Sequence record: OQ921332.1
Length of the DNA: 64,000 bases
Source of the DNA: Escherichia phage vB_EcoP_PAS59
Reading direction: 5' to 3' (one strand)
Made by a program: the position numbers and the translations under genes. Positions within the stretch are counted from its first letter, which is position 1, and each line of letters begins with the position of its first letter. Positions 14,396 to 40,983 of the stretch are shown piece after piece. The notes below the pieces were generated by a model, which did no database searches, was not told the origin of the DNA, and was given only the letters and a program-made list of their open reading frames with translations.

Positions 14396-14420
14396 GGCTC
14401 TCTTAGGAGAGTCCTTTTTT
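14396..14420 (+). terminator. Rho-independent terminator
   Basis: GGCTCTC-TTAG-GAGAGTCC followed by TTTTTT. Confidence 0.7.
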
Positions 14421-14440: not shown

Positions 14441-14608
14441 ATGGATAATAAGTTGAAAGCTAAATTCTTATTGGCAGCAATCTTTATTTGCTTAGCCACT
14501 GTAGGGTTTGTCAGGATGTACTCTTTTGCATCTTGTGAATTAAGCAAGAATGATAGAGGGTCTTACAACTGGCTAACCAATCAATGTGACAAACAGGAGA
14601 AGTTATGA
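14441..14608 (+). CDS. Small membrane or exported protein (55 aa)
   Basis: My translation: MDNKLKAKFLLAAIFICLATVGFVRMYSFASCELSKNDRGSYNWLTNQCDKQEKL; ATGA overlap with the next gene. Confidence 0.45.
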   Translation: MDNKLKAKFLLAAIFICLATVGFVRMYSFASCELSKNDRGSYNWLTNQCDKQEKL

Positions 14609-14967
14609 ACCTACGCCCCATTAAAGGCCATGTGAACCTGTCTACGCTTCATAAAGTAGCAAATGATTTAGGTGGTATGGATGAGAATGATTTGGAGCAG
14701 AATTTGCTCTGGATTGCTAATGGCATCAAGGCGGCAAAGGCCAAAATGGCTCGTGCACAAGGTAAACTAAAAGCGAATAAATATCTTATTCGTCGTCGTA
14801 ATGTCTTGCCTCAGGATGTGGTGAGTTTAGCTTTATCGGGATATAAAGCGGCAGAGTTAGAACTTCAGGAAGCTGAATTTGAAAAGATGCGCTTCCAAGA
14901 GAACTATCGAAACTTCCGTAGTATTGACTACATTCGCAAATCTCTGGGCCTTCTGGTATCAGAGTAA
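14605..14967 (+). CDS. Hypothetical coiled-coil protein
   Basis: ORF; GGAGAAG RBS. Confidence 0.65.
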   Translation: MNLRPIKGHVNLSTLHKVANDLGGMDENDLEQNLLWIANGIKAAKAKMARAQGKLKANKYLIRRRNVLPQDVVSLALSGYKAAELELQEAEFEKMRFQENYRNFRSIDYIRKSLGLLVSE

Positions 14968-14977
14968 AGAGGTAAAA

Positions 14978-16195
14978 ATGTTCCCTGTAACACTTCAAAG
15001 CTGGAAAGAATCAGAAGACGTTGTAACTGTTTGGCCTCCTTGTTATGGTTTCCTGAAAGCAGGTTACTATCAGGGTGGTGATTATGATGAAGATGAAGAT
15101 GGTTATCCTGACTACTACAACGCATATGACAGCAATTTTGGCTGGAATATCCGTATTAAGGTGTGGAGTGAGGGTATGATGGTTCGTCAAGGCACTGCTG
15201 AAGAGAATGTTCTCGAAAACATGATGCCTATGTCCGAAATCAAGTACATCTGGAACTCTGGTACACACCTTCCCGCTTATGGTGTAAAACGTTATGGCGA
15301 TAAAGAGCCTATTACCACTCAGTATTTCCGCGAAGGGTTGGAGAATGGAGACCCTCGTCCTCCGTCTCATGTAGAAACATGGGCAGAAGAAAACAACCGT
15401 CCTGATATTACTGATCGCGCTGTAATGGAAACCTTTGAAGCATTCATGGATAAAGACCTCGATTCATGTCTGGTGTGGCATGAAGCAGGATTCATGGGTG
15501 TTTGTACTGATGGTTGTCCTGCTGATCGCGCTCTGTTCTATCTGATGCTGAATCGCACATTCTATACAGATGATGAAAAATCTGCTGTGTATGAAATGTT
15601 GAACAAGATGTATAAGAAGGGCTGGTCTCCTTTAGCCTCTCTTGCATTCAGCCGACTGATCAACTCTTCAGTGGATGTGTTCGGTAACGAACGTGTTGCT
15701 TTAACAGGGAATGATTACGATTCCTGTATCTTCCAAGCATCTCTGTATACAGTGGGTGTTGGCAGTACAATGGTTGAACCTCGCCAGACCAAGTGGCGAC
15801 AGTGTGAATACACCGAAGGTGAAGGGCATCTTCGTGATGAAGACTTCCCCAGTCTGCTCTACCGTAGTGAAGGTGTGCGAGACTGTCGAGTGAATAACTC
15901 AATGTTCTTACCAATCCTTCTTCCTCAGTATTGCAATCTGCCGAATGGTGAACGTCCGGTCATCACAGAGAAGTCACTCTTGGTTGAATTTATCCGAGAA
16001 GTAGCTGAATCTGAAACATCTTTTGATAAAATTGTGTTCGGTTATAACTGGAACAATGAAACAGCTTCAGCTCGAAGCTACAACACGTATAACATTATCA
16101 GTAGTATGTCCAATGGACTGACAGGTAGTAATTATACAGTACGTCCCTCAGAAGAGTGGGAAAACATTTTGGAAAAATTATTCTTCAATAAATAG
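14978..16195 (+). CDS. Conserved protein of the amidoligase operon (405 aa), unknown function
   Basis: Internal ATG of ORF 14879..16195 after AAAGAGG. Confidence 0.75.
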   Translation: MFPVTLQSWKESEDVVTVWPPCYGFLKAGYYQGGDYDEDEDGYPDYYNAYDSNFGWNIRIKVWSEGMMVRQGTAEENVLENMMPMSEIKYIWNSGTHLPAYGVKRYGDKEPITTQYFREGLENGDPRPPSHVETWAEENNRPDITDRAVMETFEAFMDKDLDSCLVWHEAGFMGVCTDGCPADRALFYLMLNRTFYTDDEKSAVYEMLNKMYKKGWSPLASLAFSRLINSSVDVFGNERVALTGNDYDSCIFQASLYTVGVGSTMVEPRQTKWRQCEYTEGEGHLRDEDFPSLLYRSEGVRDCRVNNSMFLPILLPQYCNLPNGERPVITEKSLLVEFIREVAESETSFDKIVFGYNWNNETASARSYNTYNIISSMSNGLTGSNYTVRPSEEWENILEKLFFNK

Positions 16196-16203
16196 AGGCG
16201 AAT

Positions 16204-17154
16204 ATGTCAATCTCCGCATCGATTGCTCCGGTAACACCGGCAGAGGATTTCGGTGAGTCAGTGTTTAAAGGAAGGGCTTGCTTTGGTACTTTTAACTGTA
16301 TGCACATGTACTCTGTTACAGACATTAATGGCGACAGTCTTAGACAAACAAACCTTCGTGATAGAACTTCAGAAATTGAAGTTATTAACTTCTGGCCTCA
16401 CAATTTTTATGGCGTACCGTCTAAAGATATCGAAAGAGCTTTAGTTGAAGCAACAGACATTTTTAACTCAATGTCTTGCTATAAAGATATGTTCTCTGTC
16501 ACTTCGGTGAACTCTATTGCCGTGAACCTTCGAAACCATCCAGCAGACAAGGTGTTTACTGGACTAATGACCATCCGTAGCTATTTGGATGGTGATTTTA
16601 ATGGAATGGAGTTCCTTCAGGAAGGCGTACAAGACAAGGAAGAGTTGCTTAAGCGACAACGAATCGGTTTAGCTCTACGCCTAGCTGGTTTAAGTCGTAA
16701 CTTCTTTGGTCGCTGGTGTTATAGTAATGACGTAGACTCAACTGATGAGTCAGCAGCGACTTATTTTGATGGTGACATGAGTGCAATTGCATTTCTGCCA
16801 CTAATTTGCACCACTGATGAATTTTCTGAAAACGTATGGGTTCAGAATGTGTTCGGTGTTGATGATAACCGAGATGGTTATGTACGAAACCATAATGATG
16901 GAGTTCTCCGTCGTATGGCACGTCGTCGTGACCAAGACCCTGACCATTATGAGAGTATGAGTGAGTGGTTGCGTCTCTGGTCAACTTGTGCAGGTCACAA
17001 GCGAGAAGTATTAGATCAGCGTATGGACAGAATTACTGTTCGCAGTTTTATTGAACGTCTGATGCAAGCAGTACCTTCCTCAATGACACCAGAAGAAGCT
17101 GGTGCCCGTGTTGTTTCCCTTTTTGATGAACTCGTGGAGTATTACAATGACTAA
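16204..17154 (+). CDS. Conserved protein of the amidoligase operon (316 aa), unknown function
   Basis: ORF; overlaps the next start. Confidence 0.75.
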   Translation: MSISASIAPVTPAEDFGESVFKGRACFGTFNCMHMYSVTDINGDSLRQTNLRDRTSEIEVINFWPHNFYGVPSKDIERALVEATDIFNSMSCYKDMFSVTSVNSIAVNLRNHPADKVFTGLMTIRSYLDGDFNGMEFLQEGVQDKEELLKRQRIGLALRLAGLSRNFFGRWCYSNDVDSTDESAATYFDGDMSAIAFLPLICTTDEFSENVWVQNVFGVDDNRDGYVRNHNDGVLRRMARRRDQDPDHYESMSEWLRLWSTCAGHKREVLDQRMDRITVRSFIERLMQAVPSSMTPEEAGARVVSLFDELVEYYND

Positions 17155-17953
17155 GCGCGCTTTCCTTATTGGCTCTGACCCTGAAATGTTTGTTCGTACT
17201 GCTTCCGGTATTATCACCTCTGTGGCTGGTAAGCTGGGCTGTTCTAAAGATAATAAAATTGATCTGGCTCCTGATGTTCGTCTTCAAGAAGACAACGTTC
17301 TGGCTGAATTCGATATTAACCCACAGAAAGGGTTTGAAGCGTTTGATGATAATATTCAGCGTGGTATTGATCTGACTAACAAAGTTCTCAATGAACGTGG
17401 CATGGAGGCAGCACTTGGGATTAGCTCTCATGTGTTCACTTCAGAAGAACTTGAATCATTCCACCCGTCAGCTTTTGTATTTGGCTGTACTCCTGATTTC
17501 AATGCCTTCACTGGACAAAAGAACCCTTCACCAGTCGCAACCGATAAGGGTTTGCGTACTGCTGGGGGTCATGTGCACCTTGGTGTCTCCGGGACTTTAG
17601 AGATTACTCGACAAACTCAAATGATGTTGGGTGTGTTATGTGATTACTTCCTGTCCTTGCCAGCTGTGATCATGGATAAAGACACTCGTCGTAAAGAGTT
17701 GTACGGAAAGGCTTCTGCCATTCGCTACAAAGATTACGGTATTGAATATCGTTCTCTTTCTAACTTCTGGATTGGTGATAAGTCCACTCGCAAGTTTGTT
17801 TACGAGCAAGTGGATAAGGTTGTTCAGGGTTGTGATATGGAAGTGTTGATGTCACTTCACTCTCGCCTTCCAATTGAAAAGCTTCATAACATCATCAACA
17901 GCAACGATGTTAAAGAAGCGGATAAATTCTCCTCTAAACTCCAGATTGTATAA
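17147..17953 (+). CDS. Putative COOH-NH2 ligase (phiEco32-like amidoligase type 2)
   Basis: FLIGSDPEMF...EFDINP...GCTPDFNAFTG...GGHVHLG...EYRSLSNFW pattern, recalled from the phage COOH-NH2 ligase family. Confidence 0.55.
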   Translation: MTKRAFLIGSDPEMFVRTASGIITSVAGKLGCSKDNKIDLAPDVRLQEDNVLAEFDINPQKGFEAFDDNIQRGIDLTNKVLNERGMEAALGISSHVFTSEELESFHPSAFVFGCTPDFNAFTGQKNPSPVATDKGLRTAGGHVHLGVSGTLEITRQTQMMLGVLCDYFLSLPAVIMDKDTRRKELYGKASAIRYKDYGIEYRSLSNFWIGDKSTRKFVYEQVDKVVQGCDMEVLMSLHSRLPIEKLHNIINSNDVKEADKFSSKLQIV

Positions 17954-17962
17954 GGTGATATT

Positions 17963-18589
17963 GTGAGCTTGTTAAGAGATTTTCAACACTATTATTGTGG
18001 AACATGGATTGCTCAGCGATCACCTGATGGTAAAAACCTCCCTCTATATGTGCTTGATGTTCGTCAGCAAGGTAACTTTGATATCGACGACTACTCACAC
18101 GACGCTGAAAGGTCTTTAGTGTTTGAGGCGGAACGCTGGACTAAAAACTCTGAAGGTCAGTTTGAACGTCAGATTGTTAGTAATATCCCAGTGTTTGATC
18201 ACAGCCTCATTCTAGAGTCTCCAGATGTAGGATACCTTCAGCATGGTAATAACATGGTGAGCTGGACCCATATCAACCCTGTTCGTCAGCGAGCTAAAGG
18301 CTTGATGGGGAATAAACTTCGTGGTGCTGCACCTTCTCTCGGACGTTCGATTCCGGGTGATTTGGTGTACAACTTGTTTAATCCAGAGTTTGAAGGGTTG
18401 GTTACTCGTTTCATCTATATCAACCCTGTCGATGGAAAAGTGTATTACAAAGGGGCTTACGTTGGAAACGTGCTTCTTGAAGCTGGCTATGGCGACAACG
18501 GTCGCCAATCTTTAAACCTTCTGGAGAAGTTCAAGCACATTTCTTCAGACCTGTCATCATATAATGTAGAGTTGGTGGAATCACTATGA
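17963..18589 (+). CDS. Conserved protein of the amidoligase operon (208 aa), unknown function
   Basis: GTG start after AAGGTGA; ATGA-coupled to the next gene. Confidence 0.65.
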   Translation: MSLLRDFQHYYCGTWIAQRSPDGKNLPLYVLDVRQQGNFDIDDYSHDAERSLVFEAERWTKNSEGQFERQIVSNIPVFDHSLILESPDVGYLQHGNNMVSWTHINPVRQRAKGLMGNKLRGAAPSLGRSIPGDLVYNLFNPEFEGLVTRFIYINPVDGKVYYKGAYVGNVLLEAGYGDNGRQSLNLLEKFKHISSDLSSYNVELVESL

Positions 18590-19686
18590 CAACCGTAGCA
18601 CAAGTTTTTGGATACCGTAACCCTCGCTTATCTGAACCGCATCCAAGCATTGCTTTTCAGTGTGGTGTTGGTATTGAGTTAGAAGTCGAAGGTACTACTG
18701 ACATTGACGTTGATATGTGGGTTTGTACTGAAGACGGCTCTCTTCGTGATGGTTGTGAGTTAGTGTGTTCACGACCTTACAACGGTGAAGAATTACTTCG
18801 TGCTATTAACAATCTGAGTGAAGCAGTACAGGATTCTGGAGCCGAGGGGACTTGGCGCTGCTCCACTCACGTTCATATGGATATGCGGGACGCTGATAGT
18901 AATATCCTTAAGAAAGTTATTCTTGGGTGGACGTTCTATGAAAAGATGATGTTCAAATGTTCTGGATATCATCGTTACCGTAGTAACTTCTGCCCAGCTT
19001 TTGCTGTTGTTCAAGCTCAAGTTATGAATGCTTCATCAGCGTTCAACCGAGATGGGGAAGATTTCTTCCGTACTCTTGTTAATAGCTGGGACAAGTATAC
19101 CTCCCTTAACCTGTTGCCTCTATCTCAGTTTGGTTCTGTTGAGTTTCGTATTTCAGAGCCGAAGTGGAAAAAGAGTCAGCTGCTAAATCTGGTCAATCGC
19201 TTCTTGGTTCTCAAGAAACTGGCTGTTGAATATGCAGATTTAGATAATGAAGCTTATGTTGAGAAGTTGAATGAGCTGCGCTTCGCTCCTATGATTCAAC
19301 ATCTACCTCTAGACTATACTCCAAGAGATAGCGATCTCACTGAAGGGTATCGTCTTGCCCGTGATATTCTGTTCTGTCGTGAGCAATCTGTAACTTTGGT
19401 TGGTCGTGTTCGTGTGCAACAGACTGGCCCTGATGGTGAAGTCCTTATCAACTTACGTGACATGAATGACTTCTATGGTTTCTTGGGATATGTGCGCGGT
19501 AATGCCAACACTGTCTATGAAGAGATCATGACCTACTACACCCCTCAGATTGAAAGCACTCGAATCGCAACGGTTCGTGAAATTCGTCACATGTTTGCAT
19601 TGATGCGTGAATCAGGTAGCAGTGATAATAACATCACTGATTACATTCCAGACCATCTGGAAATGCAATTAGAACGACTGCTGTAA
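18586..19686 (+). CDS. Putative amidoligase (glutamine-synthetase-like COOH-NH2 ligase fold)
   Basis: GVGIELEVEG...EDGSLRDGCELV...STHVHMD...GSVEFRI motifs typical of the Amidoligase_2 family. Confidence 0.6.
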   Translation: MTTVAQVFGYRNPRLSEPHPSIAFQCGVGIELEVEGTTDIDVDMWVCTEDGSLRDGCELVCSRPYNGEELLRAINNLSEAVQDSGAEGTWRCSTHVHMDMRDADSNILKKVILGWTFYEKMMFKCSGYHRYRSNFCPAFAVVQAQVMNASSAFNRDGEDFFRTLVNSWDKYTSLNLLPLSQFGSVEFRISEPKWKKSQLLNLVNRFLVLKKLAVEYADLDNEAYVEKLNELRFAPMIQHLPLDYTPRDSDLTEGYRLARDILFCREQSVTLVGRVRVQQTGPDGEVLINLRDMNDFYGFLGYVRGNANTVYEEIMTYYTPQIESTRIATVREIRHMFALMRESGSSDNNITDYIPDHLEMQLERLL

Positions 19687-19763
19687 CACAATGGGCGCTC
19701 TGATAAAGGGCGCATTTAAAGGTTAATTAGATGAAAGGGTTTACCCTTCAGGTGGATTAGAAA

Positions 19764-21797
19764 ATTTGTGGTATCGTATTAGCTGGCGGCAACATGACCT
19801 CAACAGATTTGGATATTTTCAACCAACTTCTGTATGCTGGTGTTTTCCGTGGACAGCACTCAACTGGTGTGTTTGGTCAGCGTAAAGGTGAAAAGCAAGT
19901 CTTCTCTTATAAAGAAGCTCTTCCTTCTTATGCTTTTATGCTCCAGACAGAATATACAAATATTACCAAAGGGCTTACGAACTACGTAGTTCCTCCTTCG
20001 TGGATTGTTGGTCACAGCCGACATGCCACTCGTGGGGCTGTCAATGCTCGAAATGCTCACCCATTTACTCACGGGGATATTACTCTGGTTCATAATGGAA
20101 CCCTGTTAGATCAAGATCTCCTTCCTGACAGTAAGCGTTTCGAAGTTGATAGTGAAAACATCTGCCACTCAATTAATACCATTGGAGCAGCAGAGACTAT
20201 CCAAAAACTGGATGGTGCATTCACTTTGATTTGGCATGATGCTAAAGACAACACGCTTCACATTATCCGTAATGATGAGCGTCCTTTCCACCTAGCCCGT
20301 TGTGGTTTAGATTGGTTTGGGGCTTCTGAAGAAGCTATGCTTATGTGGATTTTAGAGCGTTCTAAATCCCACAAGAACCGTATCAATGACCACTTCGAAT
20401 GTAAAGTGGGAACTGAGTATATCTTTGATGTGTCTAACAGTCGTATGACTCTGGTTCAAGAGGTGGAGCACAAGCTTCCGGTTTTTACGATAACGAGTCG
20501 CTGGGGCGGCTATTACTCGAACTCCTCTCTATATCAGAACCGACAGACAAACAAATCAAGCAGCAGCACAAGCGACATTTACGGAAACAAAGACGACAAG
20601 CCCGGCGTGACAAGCGGAGACATTCGTCGTCGTAAAGCGATTGAAGACCAGAACAAACTGGCTGCCGATCGTGGTCTTCCTTATCGTCGTGATGGTCGTG
20701 TGGATATTATTCCTCACGAGTTCCATGCTTATAACAACACAGATCGTGGTAAGATGGTTGGTTACATCTACGACGATAAAGCCCAAGAGTATGTCGAAGG
20801 GGATGTTCACAACGTAGCCAAAGATGAATATCTTAAGGCTCTTGAAAACCCAAAGGTAGTATATCGCGGGACGATTGCTTGTATCTCCGAAGTGGACAGT
20901 ATGATTCGCCTCGTACTAACTTCAGGGCTGTTTGTTGATGCTACAGATAAGGAGCCTCAAAGCACTACTGCTGATTTTGATGATGATATCCCTTTTGATG
21001 CAGAGGACTCCTTCATCACTAAAAATGGTGTAGAAGTCACTCGTAAGTTCTGGGAATCTCACTCTCATGGAGATTGTGGTGGCTGTGATAAGCACATTGA
21101 CTGGAAAGATGCTCGTAAGGCTGTGTTTGCTTACCAAGCGTACTGGCATCCAGAATGCTTCGAAGCGTTGTCTAAAACCTCTGAAGAGGAAGAAGACGTA
21201 CCTTTGGGTGTATGTGCTGTCTGTGGTGAAGTCAAGACTGATTTCGAGTTTGACAACGAAATGAGTAAACTTCGTGGTGAAGATATTTGTTATATCTGCT
21301 CCAAAGAAATCAAAGATAAAGTAAAAAATGTTACTCTGTCTGAAGGTTATATTTGGACTAAAGCAGTAGACACAACTAATCCGCGTCGTCCTGAAGTGGC
21401 TGTTCGTGTTGATGAACGTATGCTTAGCCGTATGATTGTAATGGTCAGCTCAGCAAAACGTTCAGGGGATATTACACTCGCAGATGTTCCTAACTCATAT
21501 TTGGAAAAACGTGGTGGCGATACTTATGCCATTTCCGTTTACGGTCCAAAGAATGCCCCAAAGGAGGTACCCGCTGAGAAAGCGGAGACATTTCCAGAAA
21601 AATCAACCTCTCTCCGAAAAACAGTTGTCAGTTATGACGGACAACGAACAGCTGAGTTCACAAAAGCCCTCTGGACTTCAATTGGGTTTTGTGCAGTCTG
21701 TTATAAACAAATTCCGTGGCGTGATGCAGAAACTTGCTCACTAAACAAAGAAAATAGAGTGATCTGTAATTCAGATTACTGTAAAGGTAAACACTAA
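19764..21797 (+). CDS. Class-II (Ntn) glutamine amidotransferase with a C-terminal multi-Zn-ribbon extension; ATT initiation codon
   Basis: In-frame (ATT)CGIVLAGGN... precedes the ATG at 19794; stop TAG at 19758-60; AGGTGGA lies 7 nt upstream of the ATT; GHSRHATRG, HPF and LVHNG motifs. Confidence 0.7.
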   Translation: MCGIVLAGGNMTSTDLDIFNQLLYAGVFRGQHSTGVFGQRKGEKQVFSYKEALPSYAFMLQTEYTNITKGLTNYVVPPSWIVGHSRHATRGAVNARNAHPFTHGDITLVHNGTLLDQDLLPDSKRFEVDSENICHSINTIGAAETIQKLDGAFTLIWHDAKDNTLHIIRNDERPFHLARCGLDWFGASEEAMLMWILERSKSHKNRINDHFECKVGTEYIFDVSNSRMTLVQEVEHKLPVFTITSRWGGYYSNSSLYQNRQTNKSSSSTSDIYGNKDDKPGVTSGDIRRRKAIEDQNKLAADRGLPYRRDGRVDIIPHEFHAYNNTDRGKMVGYIYDDKAQEYVEGDVHNVAKDEYLKALENPKVVYRGTIACISEVDSMIRLVLTSGLFVDATDKEPQSTTADFDDDIPFDAEDSFITKNGVEVTRKFWESHSHGDCGGCDKHIDWKDARKAVFAYQAYWHPECFEALSKTSEEEEDVPLGVCAVCGEVKTDFEFDNEMSKLRGEDICYICSKEIKDKVKNVTLSEGYIWTKAVDTTNPRRPEVAVRVDERMLSRMIVMVSSAKRSGDITLADVPNSYLEKRGGDTYAISVYGPKNAPKEVPAEKAETFPEKSTSLRKTVVSYDGQRTAEFTKALWTSIGFCAVCYKQIPWRDAETCSLNKENRVICNSDYCKGKH

Positions 21798-21808
21798 GAG
21801 GTATAGTT

Positions 21809-22042
21809 ATGGAAGTTCGTAAACTGATGTTGGATAACGTGGTAACTACCCGTCGTATTCCGATGACAAGCACAGGATGTGATAACCTCCGAGCAATTCA
21901 GAAGTGGATGCAAGAAGGTATTGGGAAGCTGGTTGACTCTCCAGTAGAAATCCCTTTTCCAACCGTTATCAATAACGTGTTGGCTGACTATGTTAAAATG
22001 AAGGGGATTAAAGTTGAGCCTCATGTCAAGCAAGGGAGCTAA
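21809..22042 (+). CDS. Hypothetical protein
   Basis: ORF after AGAGG. Confidence 0.6.
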   Translation: MEVRKLMLDNVVTTRRIPMTSTGCDNLRAIQKWMQEGIGKLVDSPVEIPFPTVINNVLADYVKMKGIKVEPHVKQGS

Positions 22043-22244
22043 GCCTCACCTGACAATGCTGGAGTATCAACAACTCCGACTTCAACAACTGGTAACGGAG
22101 CAGCGAAAGCTGTATCCGTTTGCTTTTAACTTAATCGACTCTCCAAGTGATGCCCAAGAAGACGAAATGTTCGCCGAGTATTGGGCAATCGAAGCTAAAA
22201 TTCAATCCTGTCGTAACGAAATTCTTAAACTAAAAGGTATCTAA
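22014..22244 (+). CDS. Hypothetical protein (start uncertain; ATG 22056 possible)
   Basis: ORF bridging to the ATP-grasp gene. Confidence 0.45.
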   Translation: MSLMSSKGAKPHLTMLEYQQLRLQQLVTEQRKLYPFAFNLIDSPSDAQEDEMFAEYWAIEAKIQSCRNEILKLKGI

Positions 22245-22246
22245 AA

Positions 22247-23494
22247 ATGACTACTCGTATCCGTGTTCTTCCGTATGGCCCGTCTGATTCTGTTAACGCT
22301 CTGGTATCTGCTATCAGTGATACTATCCGTGATGAACGTATCAACGCTAACATAATGGGTCTTCTTTCAGAGAACAGTCGCTGGCGTTCTCGTGAGGATG
22401 ATGTGGTTGTGAACTACGGGAACCGTCGCTATCCTGAATCCTTCTTTGGTTCTGCAACTGTCCTTAACCGTACCGCAGCCTTACATATGGCAGCGAACAA
22501 ACGTCGTGCTTTCAGCGTGATGGACCAAGCAGGTGTTAAAACTGTTGAGTATACAGATGTTCAAGAGATTGCTCAGGAGTGGTCAAACTCTGGCAACATT
22601 GTGTATGAACGTCATGAACTGACTGGTCACTCTGGTTCGGGTATCGTTGTTGTTGAGCCTCGTGATTCAATTGGTCAAGCTGAACTGTACACCAAAGGTA
22701 TTCAAGGTCCACGTCGTGAATGGCGTGTCCATGTGTTCAAAGGTGTTATCACCTATGTTCAGAAGAAGATTCGTCGTAACGGCTATCGTGAAGACCCTAA
22801 CTATCGTGAAGATGTTCGTAACCATCACACTGGTTGGGTTTACTCAAGTTCCTTCACAGACGCTCCAAATGATGCATCTCTGATCAACGCAGTGAAGGCC
22901 GTTGAATCGATGGGTCTGGATTTTGGTGCAGTTGATATCATTACCAAAGGCCGAGAAGCATGGGTACTGGAAGTTAACACAGCACCGGGCCTGACTGGTA
23001 CAACTCTGGATATCTACCGTCACAACATCCTTGAGTTTGTTAAAGCTCAAAATCCTCTCTATACTCCTCAGTATAAAGTGGGTTACCAGACTCCTGTTGA
23101 AGCTCCAATCGAAGACGGAGATGGAGAGTTGGTAGATGACAGCGAAAGCGCTAATGATGAAAACTTTGCACTGGAAGGTCAGGTAGCACAGCCGGTTGAG
23201 TTGGTAGATGTAGTTCCTGAAGAGATGCAACTGGAAGGTCAGATGAATACTCAAACTATTCGTAATGCACCTACTGGTTACACTTTATCTCGTGGTTATT
23301 GGATTGCAGATATCCGTCATGTCCATAACAACCTGCAACCGAATGCAATGTCTTCCAATGTCATTTTGTTCTGTGATGGTCGTAACTTCTACCGTAGTGG
23401 CTGGAACGTTCCGGTCAATCCAGTCCAGATTCATAACCCTCGCAAGTTAGAATCTGTCAATGTTGAAGGTAGCGAAGTAGCAGTAACTCTGTAA
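22247..23494 (+). CDS. ATP-grasp (RimK-like) ligase with a C-terminal extension
   Basis: ELTGHSGSGIVVV...EWRVHVFKG...FGAVDIIT...AWVLEVNTAPGL, typical ATP-grasp motifs. Confidence 0.75.
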   Translation: MTTRIRVLPYGPSDSVNALVSAISDTIRDERINANIMGLLSENSRWRSREDDVVVNYGNRRYPESFFGSATVLNRTAALHMAANKRRAFSVMDQAGVKTVEYTDVQEIAQEWSNSGNIVYERHELTGHSGSGIVVVEPRDSIGQAELYTKGIQGPRREWRVHVFKGVITYVQKKIRRNGYREDPNYREDVRNHHTGWVYSSSFTDAPNDASLINAVKAVESMGLDFGAVDIITKGREAWVLEVNTAPGLTGTTLDIYRHNILEFVKAQNPLYTPQYKVGYQTPVEAPIEDGDGELVDDSESANDENFALEGQVAQPVELVDVVPEEMQLEGQMNTQTIRNAPTGYTLSRGYWIADIRHVHNNLQPNAMSSNVILFCDGRNFYRSGWNVPVNPVQIHNPRKLESVNVEGSEVAVTL

Positions 23495-23520
23495 TTAAAT
23501 TAAACAAAAAGGAATTTGTA

Positions 23521-23763
23521 ATGTTGTCTATCGAAGATTTGATCAGCCGTGGAATGACCGAAGAAAAAGAGCCTCTGATTGTAGGCTCTCGTAAAGCTAT
23601 CAACCAACTCTGTGAAGAGTTCGGTATCACAAATAAGAGAATGATTGGTAATCAGTTCTCTGCAATCATCACCTTCCTCAAACGAGGTGATAAATATTCA
23701 ATGGAAAGTGCTGAGCGTATCATCGCAATTGCACAAGCAGATAAGGGAGTAACAAGTCTGTGA
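23521..23763 (+). CDS. Hypothetical protein
   Basis: ORF after AAAGGAA. Confidence 0.6.
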   Translation: MLSIEDLISRGMTEEKEPLIVGSRKAINQLCEEFGITNKRMIGNQFSAIITFLKRGDKYSMESAERIIAIAQADKGVTSL

Positions 23764-23945
23764 ATAAATATACAATCATGTTTCGTACAGTAACATCAGA
23801 AGGGAATATTCAATCTCTGGATATTCAAGCAGACCGCTTTGAATCACTTGGAACAAATGTCAATTTCTTCCGAGGCGCAGAGCTAGTAGGTACGTTCCAA
23901 TCTGATGTATTAACTGGTGTGATCAAACACTTCGAAGTAGAATAA
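23760..23945 (+). CDS. Hypothetical protein
   Basis: GTG start overlapping the previous stop. Confidence 0.5.
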   Translation: MNKYTIMFRTVTSEGNIQSLDIQADRFESLGTNVNFFRGAELVGTFQSDVLTGVIKHFEVE

Positions 23946-24011
23946 TTTGCTTTAGCCTCTTCGAAAGAGGAGGCTAGTTCGAATTTAACTGAAACACTAA
24001 AAGGTAATATA

Positions 24012-24443
24012 ATGTCTGATAAAGTACTAGTTGCAACTTACGGAAGCTTGAGAAAAGGTCAACACAACCACGCTATCAATGCTCGTGCAGGTGGTGTGTC
24101 TATTGGTGAAGGGTGGACAGTAAACAACTGTAACCTGTATCAGTATTGCACAGCATACTTCCCAAGTGTATCTTTGGAGCATGACAGCAATGGTAAGCCT
24201 GTTCGTGTAGAAGTCTTTGAAACAACCCAAGCTGGTCTGGAAGGTCCGTATGACGGTCTGGAAGGTCATCGTGGTAATGATAACCCATACACCTTTTATA
24301 AGCGTACACTGATTCCAGTATTATTGGACAGCGGTGAAACTGTGGAAGCGTGGATTTATCACATCGACGAAGAACAAGATGTTCTGGTTGAATCGGGTGA
24401 CTGGACAGCATATCTGGCAGGTGAGAAGGATGACAGTAACTGA
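24012..24443 (+). CDS. Gamma-glutamyl cyclotransferase (AIG2/GGACT-like)
   Basis: VATYGSLRKGQHNH...YFPSV...VEVFE...LDGLEGH...YKRTLIPV...AWIY pattern. Confidence 0.7.
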   Translation: MSDKVLVATYGSLRKGQHNHAINARAGGVSIGEGWTVNNCNLYQYCTAYFPSVSLEHDSNGKPVRVEVFETTQAGLEGPYDGLEGHRGNDNPYTFYKRTLIPVLLDSGETVEAWIYHIDEEQDVLVESGDWTAYLAGEKDDSN

Positions 24444-24636
24444 CAGGCAGAAGTTAAGAAAGCTTGAATCTGACTACTTAAAGATGCGGTGGAAGATTAA
24501 TCGCTATGAAAAGTTTGTCAGTATGCTCACACCTGATAAGCACTCTGAAGAGTTTATTCACAGAACAAAGCAAACCTTGCAGGGTTTTCGAAACTTGCAA
24601 GATGACGTGTGGGAAGAAATACGATCGTTTTATTAA
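24430..24636 (+). CDS. Hypothetical protein (68 aa)
   Basis: Internal ATG of ORF 24334..24636 after GAGAAGG. Confidence 0.5.
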   Translation: MTVTDRQKLRKLESDYLKMRWKINRYEKFVSMLTPDKHSEEFIHRTKQTLQGFRNLQDDVWEEIRSFY

Positions 24637-27006: not shown

Positions 27007-28479
27007 ATGATTAAGATTCCATTATCTGAATTGAACCTTCAAGAAGGAGAAGCCCTCAGTGTAGGGCTTGACCTGATTCGTAATTTGATCAGAGATAACG
27101 TAGTCCCTGATGGCATCTATCCTGTTATTGCAGGTGGTGCTATCCGTGATACGTTCTTTCAAAATAGAACTCCGAATGATGTTGATATCTTCCTAGTTCA
27201 AGGAGGATTACGTTGGAACGCTCGTCAGGAAAATAGCCCTGCTAACGTAGGTAATGCTGCACTTTTCCTTGACAACTTCTTATCTTGGACAGAAAGTAAA
27301 GGGCTTCAGGTTACATCTCGACTAATTCAGCCTGTTAACGGGACAACCTATGCTGAAGCGCTTTTCACTTTCCAAGAGATTCTGGAAATCGAGATTGATC
27401 AAGTTAAAATCCAGATGATGATTAATCTACCTTTGGATATGGATACTTTAAGCCGTCGCTTCCCTATGATCTGTCAAGGGTTTATGACTCTTGGTAATCT
27501 GTATGTGTCAAACGAAGGTTTGTTTGCAATGTCATACACTCGTGACATTCCTGTGGTGTCCAGTCGTGAAATGAAGTATGTTCACAAGAAGTGGCCTGAA
27601 GCAACTGTTGCAGTTTATAGCAGTTCTACCGAATATATGCACCTTGCAATGGGAGCTTTCGGTGAGCCAGAAGTTCACCTGATTAGTGATTTAGTTGGAC
27701 CTATGGCTGGTGTAAATTTATATCAGAATCAGCGTCGTCATTATACCCTGAAGATGATGGAAACTACATTAAACATTCCTCAGGAAAGGGGTCGTAGTTA
27801 TCTGGACGAGGAAGTTAACCTACAGACAGAATGGTCTAGTGGATTAACCACTATAGGTGCTGAAGCAATTACACGACCTTGGACTCCGGGAACTAACAGA
27901 CGAGATCTTCAAGCTTTTAATGAAGAAACTTCTCGAACTGTTCGAGGAGGTGTTGTAGGGTATAACGTACAACCTCATGAAAGACCTCGTGATACTTTCA
28001 CTGGTAGTTTTGGTAGTGCACACTCTTCTGGAATGGATACTCGTACATGGCATGTCCAAGGAGGAACTGCTCGTCCTATTCCCTCTCCGTCAATGGATGA
28101 TTTGCAGCGTTCTCGTCGTTCATGGGAAACAGTAAGCTCTGTTGTTCAGGGTCTACGTGCTAGTGATATTGAACGTGTAGAAGTTGGTGATTTGCCAACC
28201 TCTACAGAAGATCGAGTATCAGCTATAGCGGCTCGTGAAGCTGCTCATATTGGTTTTGCATCATTAGCTAATGACGCTAACGAAGCTCCTCGACCTGTTG
28301 GTCGTCGTAATGGTCTAGCTCACTCTGACACTGCACTTGGTGCAGAACTACGAGCAGCAGCTCGTGAGCTATCTGGTGAGCTTCACAACAACCTGGCAGG
28401 TGTTACACTATCTCGTGAAACAGCTCGTAATATGATTAATAATTTGGCATCATCTGTACAAGGAAACAGAAACTCATGA
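27007..28479 (+). CDS. Pol-beta-superfamily nucleotidyltransferase (CCA-adding / poly(A) polymerase-like head) with a long low-complexity C-terminus
   Basis: AGGAIRDTFFQNRTPNDVDIF matches GG.(V/I)RD-x9-D.D of class II tRNA nucleotidyltransferases. Confidence 0.5.
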   Translation: MIKIPLSELNLQEGEALSVGLDLIRNLIRDNVVPDGIYPVIAGGAIRDTFFQNRTPNDVDIFLVQGGLRWNARQENSPANVGNAALFLDNFLSWTESKGLQVTSRLIQPVNGTTYAEALFTFQEILEIEIDQVKIQMMINLPLDMDTLSRRFPMICQGFMTLGNLYVSNEGLFAMSYTRDIPVVSSREMKYVHKKWPEATVAVYSSSTEYMHLAMGAFGEPEVHLISDLVGPMAGVNLYQNQRRHYTLKMMETTLNIPQERGRSYLDEEVNLQTEWSSGLTTIGAEAITRPWTPGTNRRDLQAFNEETSRTVRGGVVGYNVQPHERPRDTFTGSFGSAHSSGMDTRTWHVQGGTARPIPSPSMDDLQRSRRSWETVSSVVQGLRASDIERVEVGDLPTSTEDRVSAIAAREAAHIGFASLANDANEAPRPVGRRNGLAHSDTALGAELRAAARELSGELHNNLAGVTLSRETARNMINNLASSVQGNRNS

Positions 28480-29009
28480 GTCTTTTAGGTTCTCAAGAAT
28501 TACACAGCGTTATTGATAATGGCTTTTTAGATGCGGAGCATAAATATGTTAACGCTGCTAGTGTGGATATCCGTATTGGTGATACTATCCTTGTTGAAGA
28601 GCAGGCTGATGGTATTGTTGACATTGATGCTAAAGAAAACCTCAAGTGGAAAGAAGTAAAAATCCCTGAAGATGGTATCGTTATCACTCCGGGACAGTTC
28701 TTCTTAGCTCACTCAATGGAAGAGTTTAACCTTCCAGACAATATTTCAAGTCTGTTTGTACTCCGCTCCTCAATGGCTCGTTGTGGTTTAAACCATCTCC
28801 ATGCTGGTTGGGCTGATGCAGGGTTTAATAACAGTAAGCTGACCTTTGAGTTCCATAACGTTACTCACAATCACAGCTTACGAGTTCGTGCTGGGATGCG
28901 TGTCGGTCAAATGGTTATGTTTGAACACTCTCACGCTGGTGATGATTCCTATGCAGTGAAGGGTCGTTATAACAACTCCGATGGGGTTGTTGCTTCTAAA
29001 GGTGTATAA
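28476..29009 (+). CDS. dcd: dCTP deaminase
   Basis: ASVDIRIG...LRSSMARCGL...AGWADAGF...LEF.N motifs. Confidence 0.8.
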   Translation: MSLLGSQELHSVIDNGFLDAEHKYVNAASVDIRIGDTILVEEQADGIVDIDAKENLKWKEVKIPEDGIVITPGQFFLAHSMEEFNLPDNISSLFVLRSSMARCGLNHLHAGWADAGFNNSKLTFEFHNVTHNHSLRVRAGMRVGQMVMFEHSHAGDDSYAVKGRYNNSDGVVASKGV

Positions 29010-29501: not shown

Positions 29502-29831
29502 ATGTTAGATTTGAGTAAAGTGGCCCCGCCATCTGAAGAGATTAGCAAAGCTAAAGTTATGCAGCAGTTCTATCATCGTGACATGCTTGGTCGTTATATC
29601 AAGAATCGTGATGTTGTTGCATGGTCTATTGGAAACCAAGGCTATCTTCTCAAAGTGTTGCAAGTTACTGGCTCAACAGCCAAGCGAGTCAAAGTCTATG
29701 ACCCTGAGATGGGGCGTTCTAAATCGGTAGACCCACAGAATTGCATTGTTATTACACAGCAGGTCATGGATAACATTGCTCGTAATGTAGCTAATTCAAC
29801 TAACTTAGAAGGGGATGCACCTAATGCATAA
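29502..29831 (+). CDS. Hypothetical protein
   Basis: Internal ATG of ORF 29484..29831 after CAGGAGAGAG. Confidence 0.6.
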   Translation: MLDLSKVAPPSEEISKAKVMQQFYHRDMLGRYIKNRDVVAWSIGNQGYLLKVLQVTGSTAKRVKVYDPEMGRSKSVDPQNCIVITQQVMDNIARNVANSTNLEGDAPNA

Positions 29832-30390
29832 TAATGTCTTCGACTTACCAGAACTAACAAGAGTGGGTTCTAGTAATCCATTCTCTACTACTGATTCTTC
29901 TATCTCTCGTCTTGAGGGAATGAATAAACTGATTAGCAGTAACAGCCTAGAGCACATTCTTTGTGGTGTGCAGGCTAACCTTGAACTTCTACACATCAAA
30001 GCAAAGAACTACCACTGGAACGTCTCTGGAGCTGGTTTCCAAGGTGTTCATGGGATGTTCGATGAGTTAGAAGATTATGCTCGTGAGGCAGGCGACCGAA
30101 TAGCAGAGCGTATGCGCTTCCATTGTGTTAAGGTGGATGCCACTGCTAGTAACTATTTAGGTCACGCTTGGTTCCGAGAAGGTAACGCTGATCTCGACAT
30201 GGACGGTATGCTTTCCGACATGTGCATGACTCTTATGTGTATCATTGAGAAGATGGACGAGTTTGATTCAGACTTGTGCACCTATCCAGTTGATCAGAGT
30301 ATGCTTCAAGAAATTAATGAAGGTCTTGGCAAGTTCTGTTACTTTGTCAAGAGCAACATGTCCCACTCTGGTGGTGATGTGTCTTACTAA
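29815..30390 (+). CDS. Dps-like ferritin-fold protein
   Basis: KNYHWNVSGAGFQGVHGMFDELEDYAREAGDRIAERMR matches the Dps signature (H.W.v.G..F..vH..f.e......D.iAER). Confidence 0.7.
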   Translation: MHLMHNNVFDLPELTRVGSSNPFSTTDSSISRLEGMNKLISSNSLEHILCGVQANLELLHIKAKNYHWNVSGAGFQGVHGMFDELEDYAREAGDRIAERMRFHCVKVDATASNYLGHAWFREGNADLDMDGMLSDMCMTLMCIIEKMDEFDSDLCTYPVDQSMLQEINEGLGKFCYFVKSNMSHSGGDVSY

Positions 30391-31309: not shown

Positions 31310-31801
31310 ATGAATAATATTGACCCGTCAATAAAAGAAGCTCTTGATTACGACCCTTTGACTGGAGATTTCCGATGGGTTAAAACTTATGGAAAAGGAC
31401 ACAAAGGGTCTATAGCTGGTTCTGTAAATACCAATGGGTATTTGAGAATCGTTTATAAAGGTGCTAGATACTACGCTCATCGACTTGCTTACTGGTGGGA
31501 CACTGGATTGCTTCCTGAAGAAGTAGATCACATAGACCGCAACAGGATAAACAACAAAAGAGAGAATCTTAGGGGGACTACTAGATCAGGAAATGGCCTA
31601 AACAAAGTAGCTCAGAGTAATAATTTATCAACCGGAGTGATTGGAGTGACTGTCCATAGAAGGAAAAGTGGCTCTATTGCTTACCGGGCGGTATTTAAAT
31701 CTAAGCACATAGGACTCTTCTCAACCATAGAAGAAGCCTCTAGGGAATATAATAAAGTCAAGGAGACTTACATAAATGACAATCAAAGCTTCATTAATTG
31801 A
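31310..31801 (+). mobile_element. Free-standing HNH (HNH_3) + AP2-domain homing endonuclease gene
   Basis: YAHRLAYWW...VDHIDRNRINNKRENLR; C-terminal GVIGVT...YRAVF..KHIGLF.TIEEA; overlaps the thyX start by 26 nt. Confidence 0.8.
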
Positions 31802-32423
31802 TAACTTCGGTTCAGATCTTACAGTAGTCAATGCTGCTCGTGTAACTATGGGGGTAGAAAGGGAAGAATTAAAAGAAAGTGACACTCGTCTAATAAATTT
31901 TCTAGCTCGGGAACGGCACGTAAGTCCTTTTCGTCACCCACAAGCGAGCTTCAGATGCGAAGCTCCTATAGCAATTGCACGACAGTTACAGAAGCATCAA
32001 GTTGGTTTTTCTTGGAACGAGATGAGTCGTAGATATAAAGATGGAGCAGTGGATATTTTCATACCTAAAGAAATCTTCTCCCGTCCAGATGATCTACATT
32101 CTGGTTCTGGAATACTTCTTGAAGGGGAGGAAGAGGCAAAAGCTTTAGCTTTGTTTAACTCTGCGTACGAGGCATCTCTTGCTAGTTATGACGAATTGAT
32201 TAAGTTCGTAGCTCCTGAACAAGCTAGATTTGTTTTACCTCAAGGTATGGTAACTACTTGGTACTGGACTGGTAGCTTGTATGGCTGGTTTGAATTGTGT
32301 CGTCAACGACTATCATCCCATGCTCAATATGAAGTTCGACTATTTGCTCAGTCATTAGATGAAGAGATGGCTAAACTCTATCCAATCTCATGGGCAGCTT
32401 TGAAGAAAACTTTGGAGAGTTAA
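31776..32423 (+). CDS. thyX: FAD-dependent thymidylate synthase ThyX
   Basis: ERHVSPFRHP...IARQLQKHQVGFSWNEMSRRY (ThyX RHR...S motif region). Confidence 0.85.
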   Translation: MTIKASLIDNFGSDLTVVNAARVTMGVEREELKESDTRLINFLARERHVSPFRHPQASFRCEAPIAIARQLQKHQVGFSWNEMSRRYKDGAVDIFIPKEIFSRPDDLHSGSGILLEGEEEAKALALFNSAYEASLASYDELIKFVAPEQARFVLPQGMVTTWYWTGSLYGWFELCRQRLSSHAQYEVRLFAQSLDEEMAKLYPISWAALKKTLES

Positions 32424-33075: not shown

Positions 33076-33257
33076 AATGTTTTAAATGTGAATCAACTCT
33101 TCTCCATTTGGACTCGAAAGTAATACGGGAGCTTGCCAAAGGCTCCCCGACTAAAGGGAAGAATAAGAAGTTTGTCGAAATTAAGGTTATAGGTATCCAT
33201 TGCTCAGAGTGTAAATCCTGTAGCTTCTTATATGAAGAACACGGAGGTAGGAAATGA
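33072..33257 (+). CDS. Zn-ribbon ORF with no ATG/GTG/TTG start (CTG candidate)
   Basis: Open frame 33060-33254 encodes KCFKCE...HCSECKSC; AAGGA lies 9 nt upstream of CTG 33072. Confidence 0.3.
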   Translation: MKCFKCESTLLHLDSKVIRELAKGSPTKGKNKKFVEIKVIGIHCSECKSCSFLYEEHGGRK

Positions 33258-33991
33258 GTCGTAGAGAATCTCGGAAAGCATCACGGAGAGAATTACGTCG
33301 TGAAGCTCTCGTCACCAAGAAAGGAAAGCGGGAATTTGAAGAAGTAGTTCTTGCTAAGCCGGTAGTACCTCAGAACCAATTCCAGAGTGAGCTGCTTGAT
33401 GCAATTAAAACCAAACAGGTTGTATTCACAGATGCTCCTGCTGGCTGTGGTAAGACATTCGTAATCACTTCTACAGTGATCGATGCTCTGAAGAGTGGGA
33501 AGATTGAGAAGATTATCCTAAGCCGACCTGCTGTTGGTATGGGTAACAGTCTAGGATTACTTCCCGGTGGGCTTCGTGAGAAATTTGAACCATACCTGAT
33601 GCCAATTGTTGATGTTATCACTCAGCGTTATGGTAAAGGCTTCTATGAGTGTCAAATTGGTAATGGTAACATTGAGTTTGTACCTCTGGAATACCTCCGT
33701 GGCCGTTCATTCAACGATGCTATTGTGATTGTTGATGAGTTCCAGAATACCACTCCTGATGAAGCATATTCAATTATGACTCGTCTTGGTGAAACCTCTC
33801 AGATGTTCTGTATGGGGGACACCAATCAGCACGATATGCGTGGTGAGAGTGGTCTAGATTGGGCTACTGATTTCATATACCGTCACAAATTGTTTGAATT
33901 TGCCGCTCTAGTAGATGGTGAATCGGATGATATTGTTCGTTCAGGTTTCTGTAAAGCTATTGTCAAAGCAATGGAATCTGAAAAATCATAA
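33254..33991 (+). CDS. phoH: PhoH-like ATPase
   Basis: Walker A DAPAGCGKT; VIVDEFQN; typical PhoH C-terminal region. Confidence 0.85.
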   Translation: MSRRESRKASRRELRREALVTKKGKREFEEVVLAKPVVPQNQFQSELLDAIKTKQVVFTDAPAGCGKTFVITSTVIDALKSGKIEKIILSRPAVGMGNSLGLLPGGLREKFEPYLMPIVDVITQRYGKGFYECQIGNGNIEFVPLEYLRGRSFNDAIVIVDEFQNTTPDEAYSIMTRLGETSQMFCMGDTNQHDMRGESGLDWATDFIYRHKLFEFAALVDGESDDIVRSGFCKAIVKAMESEKS

Positions 33992-40974: not shown

Positions 40975-40983
40975 TATACATTA
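40975..40983 (-). promoter_or_regulatory. TAATGTATA 9-mer on the minus strand (leftward, antisense to the + genes)
   Basis: The plus strand reads TATACATTA. Confidence 0.45.

Follow-up and report, generated by a model that had tools for sequence, protein, structure and literature searches.

The phiEco32-type amidoligase module (Iyer, Abhiman, Burroughs & Aravind 2009) is a phage gene set made up of a ligase of family PF14395, which Pfam calls 'Phage phiEco32-like COOH.NH2 ligase-type 2', a ligase of family PF12224, a class-II amidotransferase, an ATP-grasp enzyme and an AIG2 protein. We found the same module at 14978-24443 on the (+) strand of a 64,000-nucleotide stretch of DNA from Escherichia phage vB_EcoP_PAS59 (OQ921332.1), called the window below. 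The gene order in the window is that of phiEco32-like phages, and nothing essential differs from the phiEco32-type system. A first-pass annotation of the window had credited the module to the Aravind group (2009), and this agrees with the Pfam name and with the passages of PMC10580990 and PMC5498523 that cite Iyer et al. for it. The prediction it gave, synthesis of a peptide-like metabolite or tagging of a protein, was broader than the published one. As cited in PMC5498523, PMC11945000 and PMC10580990, the published prediction is a cell-wall modification that blocks superinfection, and the module is also named a 'peptidoglycan modification cassette' where it is cited from Hardies 2013 and Duhaime 2017. 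The module is already known as a predicted, uncharacterised phage system, and the window holds a near-identical copy of it, so this is a re-identification and not a discovery. To the earlier picture we add a conserved AUU start codon, a widespread terminal zinc ribbon, a counted core of four enzymes joined by a protein that we call X3, and the accessory standing of the cyclotransferase. We also add that two further proteins, X1 and X2, are probable paralogues without a solved relative, and that restriction-site counts bear on the idea of DNA modification.

Gamma-glutamyl 'handle' pathways are known for putrescine (ligase PuuA and C26 hydrolase PuuD), ergothioneine (ligase EgtA and class-II amidohydrolase EgtC) and butirosin (ATP-grasp enzyme BtrJ and cyclotransferase BtrG). 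In these pathways a ligase of glutamine-synthetase/gamma-glutamylcysteine-ligase or ATP-grasp type installs a gamma-glutamyl group, and an enzyme of class-II amidotransferase fold, C26 or AIG2 type takes it off again. The phage module holds like enzyme types. Because the handle pathways pair the same enzyme types, we favour a gamma-glutamyl-amide pathway for the module. The likeness does not extend to orthology, and scores lie far under the family cut-offs. The phage module differs in its three ligases, and no tailoring enzyme of the pyridoxal phosphate, radical S-adenosylmethionine or oxygenase kind can be recognised in it that would act between attachment and removal of the handle.

Two other systems are similar in part. 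In pupylation (PafA/Dop), a glutamine-synthetase-like ligase joins the gamma-carboxylate of glutamate to an amine, and a deamidation step is involved. The phage module, in contrast, has no gene for a Pup-like tag, and the Pfam scan gave no match to Pup_ligase; deamidation would fall to the N-terminal-nucleophile amidotransferase and not to a Dop paralogue. Thymidine hypermodification clusters (Lee et al. 2018, 2021) are likewise phage clusters near replication genes, sometimes with an amidoligase and an amidotransferase (PMC8989533). However, a source of 5-hydroxymethyldeoxyuridine (5-hmdU), be it a ThyA-type hydroxymethylase or a TET/JBP enzyme, a 5-hmdU DNA kinase and aGPT-Pplase were not among the 36 window proteins scanned, a set smaller than all its open reading frames (ORFs), and ThyX was found instead.

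From comparison of protein families and gene neighbourhoods we lean, with somewhat better than even confidence, towards a cytoplasmic, early-expressed pathway that would build and trim a gamma-glutamyl amide on an amine acceptor. The enzymes that would carry it out were identified as follows. All twelve co-directional ORFs listed for 14978-24443 (+) in the first-pass annotation were present at those positions, and they match annotated genes of phages EK010, SU7 and Bas86. Over its full length, the 9466-nt block has 95-97% nucleotide identity to Escherichia phages EK010 (~97%), E20-1, SU7 and BASEL Bas86/87, and ~75% DNA identity to SU10-type Kuravirus phages. By sequence, the source phage is classed as a phiEco32-like podovirus of the Gordonclarkvirinae (genus Suseptimavirus according to the SU7 record). 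Annotations in these relatives read COOH.NH2 ligase, amidoligase, glutamine amidotransferase, ATP-grasp enzyme, gamma-glutamyl cyclotransferase and hypothetical proteins. The block makes up 14.8% of the window, as estimated before (about 15%), and ~12% of a genome of roughly 78 kb, of which about 14 kb lies outside the window.

Profile searches supported all five enzyme assignments of the first-pass annotation, with RimK just under its cut-off. Both ligases of the glutamine synthetase type scored above the Pfam gathering cut-offs. CNL (17147-17953, +), a COOH-NH2 ligase type 2 of the glutamine-synthetase/gamma-glutamylcysteine-ligase fold, matched PF14395 (COOH-NH2_lig) with an E value of 2.2e-8 (34.1 bits, cut-off 25) and phrog_3815 'COOH.NH2 ligase' with 1.3e-112. 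Residues D11-P-E13, E54, H142-x-H144 and E200-x-R202 were invariant or nearly so among 12-20 sequences of 24-79% identity; judged from the fold, these acidic, His and Arg residues would be metal or ATP ligands. AL2 (18586-19686, +), the second carboxylate-amine ligase, matched Amidoligase_2 (PF12224) with 1e-8 (35.8 bits, cut-off 22) and phrog_7469 with 6e-142. Its ExExE, HxH and ExR motifs (E31-x-E33-x-E35, H95-x-H97 and E186-F-R188) and E58 were invariant. The motifs quoted earlier for the two genes, GGHVHLG, GVGIELEVEG and EDGSLR, are present in the ligase ORFs. The CNL start overlaps the end of X2 by 8 nt, and the AL2 start overlaps the X3 stop (ATGA). Single-sequence and profile searches of CNL, AL2, X1 and X3 against the PDB gave nothing useful.

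The 5' end of CNL differs among close relatives. In SU7 (L002, 6202-6672) and Bas86 (L001, 6170-6700), a free-standing HNH homing-endonuclease gene lies within the first ~11 CNL codons, and after it comes a second, synonymously recoded copy of the CNL 5' end. The same site is uninterrupted ('empty') in the window (17147-17180). We rejected an intron as the explanation: there was no Rfam match, and the insertion consists of the free-standing HNH gene and the recoded 5' end. The two-piece 'join' annotation of CNL in Bas86 is probably wrong.

The third ligase is AGR (22247-23494, +), a core-gene ATP-grasp ligase of the RimK/MptN/CofF (alpha-L-glutamate ligase) type. Its best NCBIfam matches included MptN (E 4e-9; 36 bits, cut-off 350), rimK_fam (E 6e-7; 29 bits, cut-off 143) and CofF, and its best solved relatives were RimK structures (E 1e-3). 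The orthologue in Proteus phage 3H10_20 passed the Pfam RimK model at 35.2 bits. R122, S129-G130-x-G132, E158, K174, D230, E242 and N244 were invariant in 20 sequences, in keeping with the catalytic residues of RimK, MptN and CofF. We read G130/G132 as a putative flexible loop and D230/E242/N244 as putative Mg ligands. Placement in the ATP-grasp superfamily is secure; membership in the RimK family proper is not established. AGR also matched phrog_2599 (E 2e-170), and its C-terminal extension of ~135 residues, noted before as a 130-residue extension, matched phrog_20552; RimK lacks this domain. AGR received its PHROG label, 'ribosomal protein S6 glutaminyl transferase', by transfer from homologues, and nothing here points to ribosomal protein S6 as its substrate. 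Longer orthologues of the ATP-grasp and amidoligase proteins contained no informative extra Pfam domain, the sole extra match being a weak one to T7_gp14 (E 0.025).

GAT (19764-21797, +) is a core gene for a class-II (N-terminal nucleophile) glutamine amidotransferase/amidohydrolase of 677 residues, which matched GATase_6 with an E value of 2.7e-14. Aligned to the glutaminase domain of GlmS (1xff), R86 corresponds to R73, N110-G111 to N98-G99, and D129 to D123. Since these glutamine-binding and oxyanion residues are kept, the pocket should accept a glutamyl moiety whose alpha-amino and alpha-carboxyl groups are free. GAT also gave weak matches to EgtC (E 0.006) and YafJ, and it may be a stand-alone amidohydrolase like either of these. 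No known synthase domain was matched in residues ~230-677, where the sole weak match was to LIM (E 0.037), beside zinc ribbons. CxxC motifs at 438, 484, 509 and 643, one HxxC and further C-terminal Cys/His residues fit about three zinc ribbons in the C-terminal third, which agrees with the 'several' Zn-ribbons described before. Of 49 module amidotransferases belonging to other lineages, at least 30 carry a terminal CxxC...CxxC pair. The zinc-ribbon fusion is therefore an old feature of the module amidotransferase.

The start codon of GAT is unusual. Its frame opens, after a TAG, two codons 5' of the ATT at 19764-19766, and a Shine-Dalgarno sequence, AGGTGGA (19749-19755, +), ends 8 nt before this ATT. 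Only with a start at ATT 19764 is Cys the second codon. The next ATG lies at 19794, and initiation there would remove the catalytic Cys. The ATT is kept in all five Gordonclarkvirinae loci examined (5/5). GAT homologues elsewhere mostly start with ATG (ATG-TGT), and that of PA11 starts with TTG. On these sequence features we take the AUU start as real. In the 77-nt spacer before GAT (19687-19763), two small hairpins are possible (19695-19713, and ~19736-19750 directly before the Shine-Dalgarno sequence); the overall fold of the spacer is ordinary (z -1.4).

The fifth enzyme, GGCT (24012-24443, +), is an accessory gamma-glutamyl cyclotransferase of AIG2/GGACT type. It matched PF06094 with an E value of 8.9e-16 (59 bits, cut-off 22.8), as expected from the earlier call of an AIG2/GGCT-fold enzyme. 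The YGSL motif (Y10-G-x-L13) and D81-x-L-E84-G, which includes the catalytic Glu, were invariant in 15 sequences. A sigma-70 promoter for GGCT, proposed by our scan and annotated in SU7, was rejected: its -10 box overlaps the GGCT start codon.

To see how far these genes stay together, we assembled 54 related loci, using phage records, viral contigs and the results of scanning 185,579 species genomes, and searched them with profiles from the window proteins. Co-occurrence was counted in the 34 loci that have 5 kb or more of flank on each side of CNL. AL2 and the amidotransferase were present in all of them (34/34 each) and the ATP-grasp enzyme in 32/34. Less regular members were X3 (22/34), the primase/helicase (20/34), the cyclotransferase (17/34), the small protein S1 of family DUF7195 (13/34), X2 (12/34) and X1 (10/34). 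CNL, AL2, AGR and GAT form the obligate set, X3 is a frequent fifth member and GGCT is accessory. The four core genes stand in eight different orders among the 34 loci. That the set stays joined despite this shuffling gives good support to a joint function of the four enzymes. The catalytic residues of all five enzymes were invariant across loci down to 24-40% identity. In one phage contig of ~94 kb with an X1 only 27% identical, the whole order from X1 to the primase was kept.

The scan of 185,579 species genomes yielded 34 loci only, all on metagenome-bin contigs of phage size or on short scaffolds. The module is essentially confined to phages, and a cellular (non-phage) context for CNL, considered as a candidate, was rejected on the same result. 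The same enzyme set occurs in LUZ24, tf, PaP3, PA11, 7-11, RIO-1-like phages, CVT22 and one crAss-like phage. CVT22, PA11, a Rhizobium phage and the crAss-like phage cr108_1 carry an extra protein of ~205-215 residues annotated as amidotransferase or peptidase C26. The module lies directly 5' of the primase/helicase in 20/34 loci, and in a crAss-like phage it is embedded in the replication block; this linkage may reflect shared ancestry of podovirus early regions and not function.

In distant relatives, other genes precede the module (L055/L056, 1-9300; L013, 1999-4562; L018, 1-1343; L020, 3988-6269). They include genes for phosphoribosyl pyrophosphate synthetase and a nicotinamide/nicotinate phosphoribosyltransferase (nicotinamide adenine dinucleotide salvage). 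Tellurite-resistance-type genes precede it in some as well: TerC, TerD and vWA-TerF in L055/L056 and a 'tellurite resistance protein' in L018. The window lacks all of these genes.

The location and timing in our reading rest on the following results. None of the thirteen proteins encoded by the block and the small gene that follows it has a membrane segment (the top 19-residue hydropathy was 1.57, and none reached 1.6), so all thirteen are predicted to be soluble and cytoplasmic. In SU10, the module orthologues were classed as early genes, and the ATP-grasp enzyme, the amidotransferase and the YtfP-like cyclotransferase were detected by mass spectrometry (PMC4281155). No exact copy of the promoter motif of the phiEco32 phage sigma factor lies within the block or directly ahead of it, which agrees with the early-gene class of the SU10 orthologues. 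When a Pseudomonas phage was put through directed evolution, two independent lines each gained missense mutations in both the amidoligase and amidotransferase genes (PMC11450229). These parallel mutations suggest that the module affects infection success.

Elsewhere in the window, exact copies of the phage-sigma (gp36) element TAATGTATA lie at 626, 33995 and 41046 (+) and at 40975 and 51676 (-). When sites with one mismatch were included, the window held 20, which is not above chance.

In the proposed pathway, one of the glutamine-synthetase-like ligases would activate the gamma-carboxylate of free L-glutamate with ATP and join it to the amine of an acceptor to form a gamma-glutamyl amide. The second ligase and the ATP-grasp enzyme would add more residues, and the latter would most likely add L-glutamate to a terminal alpha-carboxylate, as RimK, MptN and CofF do. 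The amidotransferase could use glutamine-derived ammonia to amidate an activated carboxylate, or it could hydrolyse the gamma-glutamyl amide, and its C-terminal zinc ribbon(s) would probably dock to a partner. The AIG2/GGACT enzyme would cut off a gamma-glutamyl group with a free alpha-amine and release 5-oxoproline, as a deprotecting or clean-up step that would be dispensable in half of the lineages.

The pocket of class-II amidotransferases and the AIG2/GGACT enzymes require a glutamyl group with a free alpha-amine, and C26 enzymes likewise cleave gamma-glutamyl amides. Three kinds of gamma-glutamyl-amide hydrolase thus accompany the ligases: the class-II amidotransferase always, GGACT in half of the loci, and a C26-type protein in some lineages. 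Both hydrolases of the window should act only where the glutamyl alpha-amine is unblocked, and we therefore consider a peptide backbone a less likely acceptor than a small molecule that bears an amine or a macromolecule with a free amine.

Several points weigh against the gamma-glutamyl-amide pathway. Only family resemblance points to the order of the steps, to glutamate as the activated acid and to the kind of acceptor, and all NCBIfam family scores are far below the equivalog cut-offs. AGR scored 20.8 bits against the Pfam RimK model (PF08443), just below the cut-off of 21; the earlier description of a RimK-like ATP-grasp enzyme thus held for the ATP-grasp part, through MptN, rimK_fam and the conserved residues, but missed the RimK cut-off. 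GAT could equally be an ammonia donor or a hydrolase, and the sequence does not decide between the two. The cyclotransferase is absent from half of the loci, although some copies may lie beyond the fetched flanks, and the trim step is therefore not essential. The 'complete ligate/amidate/trim pathway' of the first-pass annotation is reasonable as chemistry, but its completeness is not established, with GGACT in only 17/34 loci. X1, X2 and X3, about one third of the coding length, have no assigned role. Finally, full-text searches of papers to 2026 turned up no product, target or knockout phenotype and only speculation from genome annotation, in agreement with the first-pass annotation on product and target.

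The published alternative is modification of peptidoglycan precursors, in which the ligases would alter cytoplasmic muropeptide precursors and so bring about superinfection exclusion or prepare lysis. PMC5498523, PMC11945000 and PMC10580990 credit this prediction to Iyer et al. 2009 and Hardies et al. 2013. The module enzymes are predicted to be cytoplasmic, as precursor steps are, and glutamate-linked and amide chemistry resembles features of the stem peptide. However, the alpha-amine of the gamma-linked D-glutamate in the stem peptide is blocked by L-alanine, and neither the cyclotransferase nor an amidotransferase pocket for a free alpha-amine would be expected to act on it. There is also no Mur-type ligase, no Mur-ligase family being among the Pfam matches of the module proteins (scanned to E 0.05-0.1), and the module is always placed with replication genes and not with lysis genes. 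We consider this explanation unlikely. No more probable in our judgement is that a host or phage protein receives a peptide or glutamyl tag for takeover, as in pupylation or in the glutamylation of S6 by RimK, with X1, X2 and X3 as adaptors or targets. Tagging is among the options in the title of the 2009 paper as cited in PMC10580990. The ATP-grasp enzyme is nearest to the RimK/MptN glutamate ligases, its conserved extra C-terminal domain could recognise a target, the zinc ribbons of the amidotransferase suggest docking to a macromolecule, and expression is early. Against this, the core has no conserved small protein ending in a fixed Glu or Gln: the C-terminal Glu of the small protein S4 is not universal, and S4 is confined to one lineage. 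X3 has no informative fusions, and both hydrolases should suit free gamma-glutamyl ends better than backbone-linked tags. An auxiliary metabolic module that raises host nitrogen, glutamine or glutathione metabolism for phage production seems very improbable. Such a role has reportedly been suggested for a Planctomycetes phage, and the enzyme set loosely resembles the gamma-glutamyl cycle (ligase, ATP-grasp synthetase, N-terminal-nucleophile hydrolase and cyclotransferase). Yet the CNL and X3 families are essentially phage-only and hence not copies of host genes, scores are far under those of housekeeping enzymes, and E. coli is already rich in glutamine synthetase and glutathione enzymes.

The remaining alternative is modification of DNA or of a nucleotide precursor, in which an amino-acid-derived group on a base would guard the genome from restriction. 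According to PMC11990801, Gordonclarkvirinae are 'remarkably resistant' to restriction-modification systems, although neither a modification pathway nor an inhibitor is known in them. In the 64-kb window, the numbers of EcoRI (15), EcoRV (21), EcoKI (5) and EcoP1 (110) sites are near expectation, and the reported resistance to these four systems is therefore not due to missing sites. The location of the module, directly upstream of the primase/helicase in 20/34 loci and within the crAss-like replication block, would fit as well, and in viromes thymidine-hypermodification genes are found together with those for an amidoligase and an amidotransferase (PMC8989533). But the linkage to replication genes may be no more than the common descent of podovirus early regions, and the phage encodes ThyX (PF02511, E 5e-43) and dCTP deaminase, which make ordinary thymidylate and weaken the idea. 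No ThyA-type hydroxymethylase or base-hypermodification family was found among the 36 window proteins scanned against Pfam, and no module protein matched a DNA-binding or base-flipping family, save the possible regulator S1. Other sites are avoided in the window: CCWGG (2 versus 92 expected), GATC (125 versus 278), PstI (0 versus 18) and BamHI (0 versus 11). Such strong avoidance suggests that the DNA is still exposed to some nucleases. We hold base modification to be improbable, and we give an equally low chance to a wider version, in which the module would make a glutamyl or glutaminyl mark on phage DNA or on a DNA-shielding protein, X1, X2 and X3 would recognise the substrate, and resistance to type I, II and III restriction would follow.

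Three large proteins of the block had been described as lacking recognisable motifs, and this was borne out: X1, X2 and X3 had no Pfam or NCBIfam match and matched only PHROGs of unknown function. X1 (14978-16195, +), a soluble protein of 405 residues, is confined to one lineage of prolate-head (C3-type) podoviruses. X2 (16204-17154, +) is a soluble protein of 316 residues. Structure prediction gave confident models for both, with no solved-structure relative. Foldseek searches of X1 against viral models matched Cronobacter phage GAP52 proteins of 314 residues (E 5e-5) and 290 residues (E 5e-4), and also proteins of Proteus, Aeromonas and Salinivibrio phages. The 314-residue GAP52 protein sits where the X2 orthologue belongs. 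Profile alignment of X1 and X2 with hhalign was not significant (E 0.07-0.38), with PAD[RK]..LM..R, W.Q and G[HY].R[DN] as aligned motifs, and iterative hidden Markov model searches never joined the two families. On the Foldseek match to the GAP52 X2 orthologue and the colinear motifs, we take X1 and X2 as probable distant paralogues, of a fold for which no solved relative was found. X3 (17963-18589, +), 208 residues with a GTG start, usually lies between the two ligase genes and belongs to phrog_4877, which also holds LUZ24 gp17. Its profile found 85 cluster representatives among 1.84 billion proteins, nearly all stand-alone and of 170-225 residues. Fusions of X3 were considered as a functional clue and rejected, their extensions being uninformative. 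All three proteins may be non-catalytic or novel partners of the enzymes.

The small genes vary more among lineages. S1 (21809-22042, +) encodes a basic protein of 77 residues (isoelectric point 9.3) of family DUF7195 (PF23825, E 3e-19), possibly a ribbon-helix-helix DNA-binding protein. It adjoins the amidotransferase also in LUZ24, 7-11, Privateer-like and Vibrio phages. S2 (22023-22244, +; ~73 residues, phrog_13464) overlaps S1 and is confined to Gordonclarkvirinae and close relatives; its ORF opens with TTG at 22014, and relatives annotate the ATG at 22023. S3 (23521-23763, +; 80 residues, phrog_8339) is limited to the lineage of the window phage. S4 (23760-23945, +; phrog_8591) is an acidic protein of 61 residues with a GTG start, whose C-terminal Glu is shared by most, though not all, orthologues. 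S5 (24430-24636, +; phrog_10819), a basic protein of 68 residues annotated in SU7 and Bas86, is the thirteenth gene; it overlaps the GGCT stop and lies directly before the primase/helicase. A carrier or tag protein among these small ORFs was looked for and rejected: S1 is a DUF7195 (ribbon-helix-helix-like) protein, and S4, found in one lineage, lacks an invariant Glu.

The genes of the block are closely packed, with four overlaps (-8, -4, -29 and -4 nt) and five gaps of 2-11 nt. Three junctions are wider: 77 nt separate the amidotransferase from the gene ahead of it, 26 nt follow the ATP-grasp gene and 66 nt precede the cyclotransferase. The statement that most genes abut or overlap thus holds for nine junctions but not for these three. 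The last gap contains a strong, GC-rich hairpin (23952-23977, +) with an 11-bp stem (-20.4 kcal/mol; z -3.7), matched by none of 200 shuffles (0/200), which may be a partial terminator or an RNA-stability element. A translationally coupled operon of twelve genes is therefore an overstatement, although part of it is coupled. The limits of the block are arbitrary, because co-directional genes run on at both ends. Upstream, a co-directional gene lies at 14441-14967. Downstream follow S5, the primase/helicase, a DNA polymerase exonuclease subunit and a 490-residue 'nucleotidyltransferase'. A terminator-like hairpin with a T-run lies at 14396-14413 (+), ~560 nt 5' of X1, and matches the one annotated as a terminator in SU7. 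It may mark the true start of the transcription segment that holds the module.

Further downstream, the gene for the 490-residue protein (27007-28479, +), which the records of relatives call a 'nucleotidyltransferase', is flanked by those for the DNA polymerase exonuclease subunit and for dCTP deaminase. The protein had no Pfam or NCBIfam match, and the BASEL authors suspected a role in DNA modification. The middle-gene block of the window encodes dCTP deaminase (28476-29009), a ferritin/Dps-like protein (29815-30390), the flavin-dependent thymidylate synthase ThyX (31776-32423) and PhoH (33254-33991), so the phage makes normal dTMP and does not replace thymine. HindIII sites are also strongly avoided in the 64-kb window (28 versus 52 expected).

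The module likely matters for infection, because it has been kept together through shuffling in many podovirus lineages and is essentially absent from cells. The lineages that carry it include phiEco32-like phages, LUZ24-like phages, which are used in therapy cocktails, Zobellviridae and a crAss-like phage. Phages Bas86-94 of the BASEL collection, which grow on E. coli K-12 with restored O-antigen, make genetics of the module practical. Seventeen years after the prediction, solving the module would add new phage biochemistry. It could explain the restriction resistance of phiEco32-like phages or reveal a new route of host remodelling.

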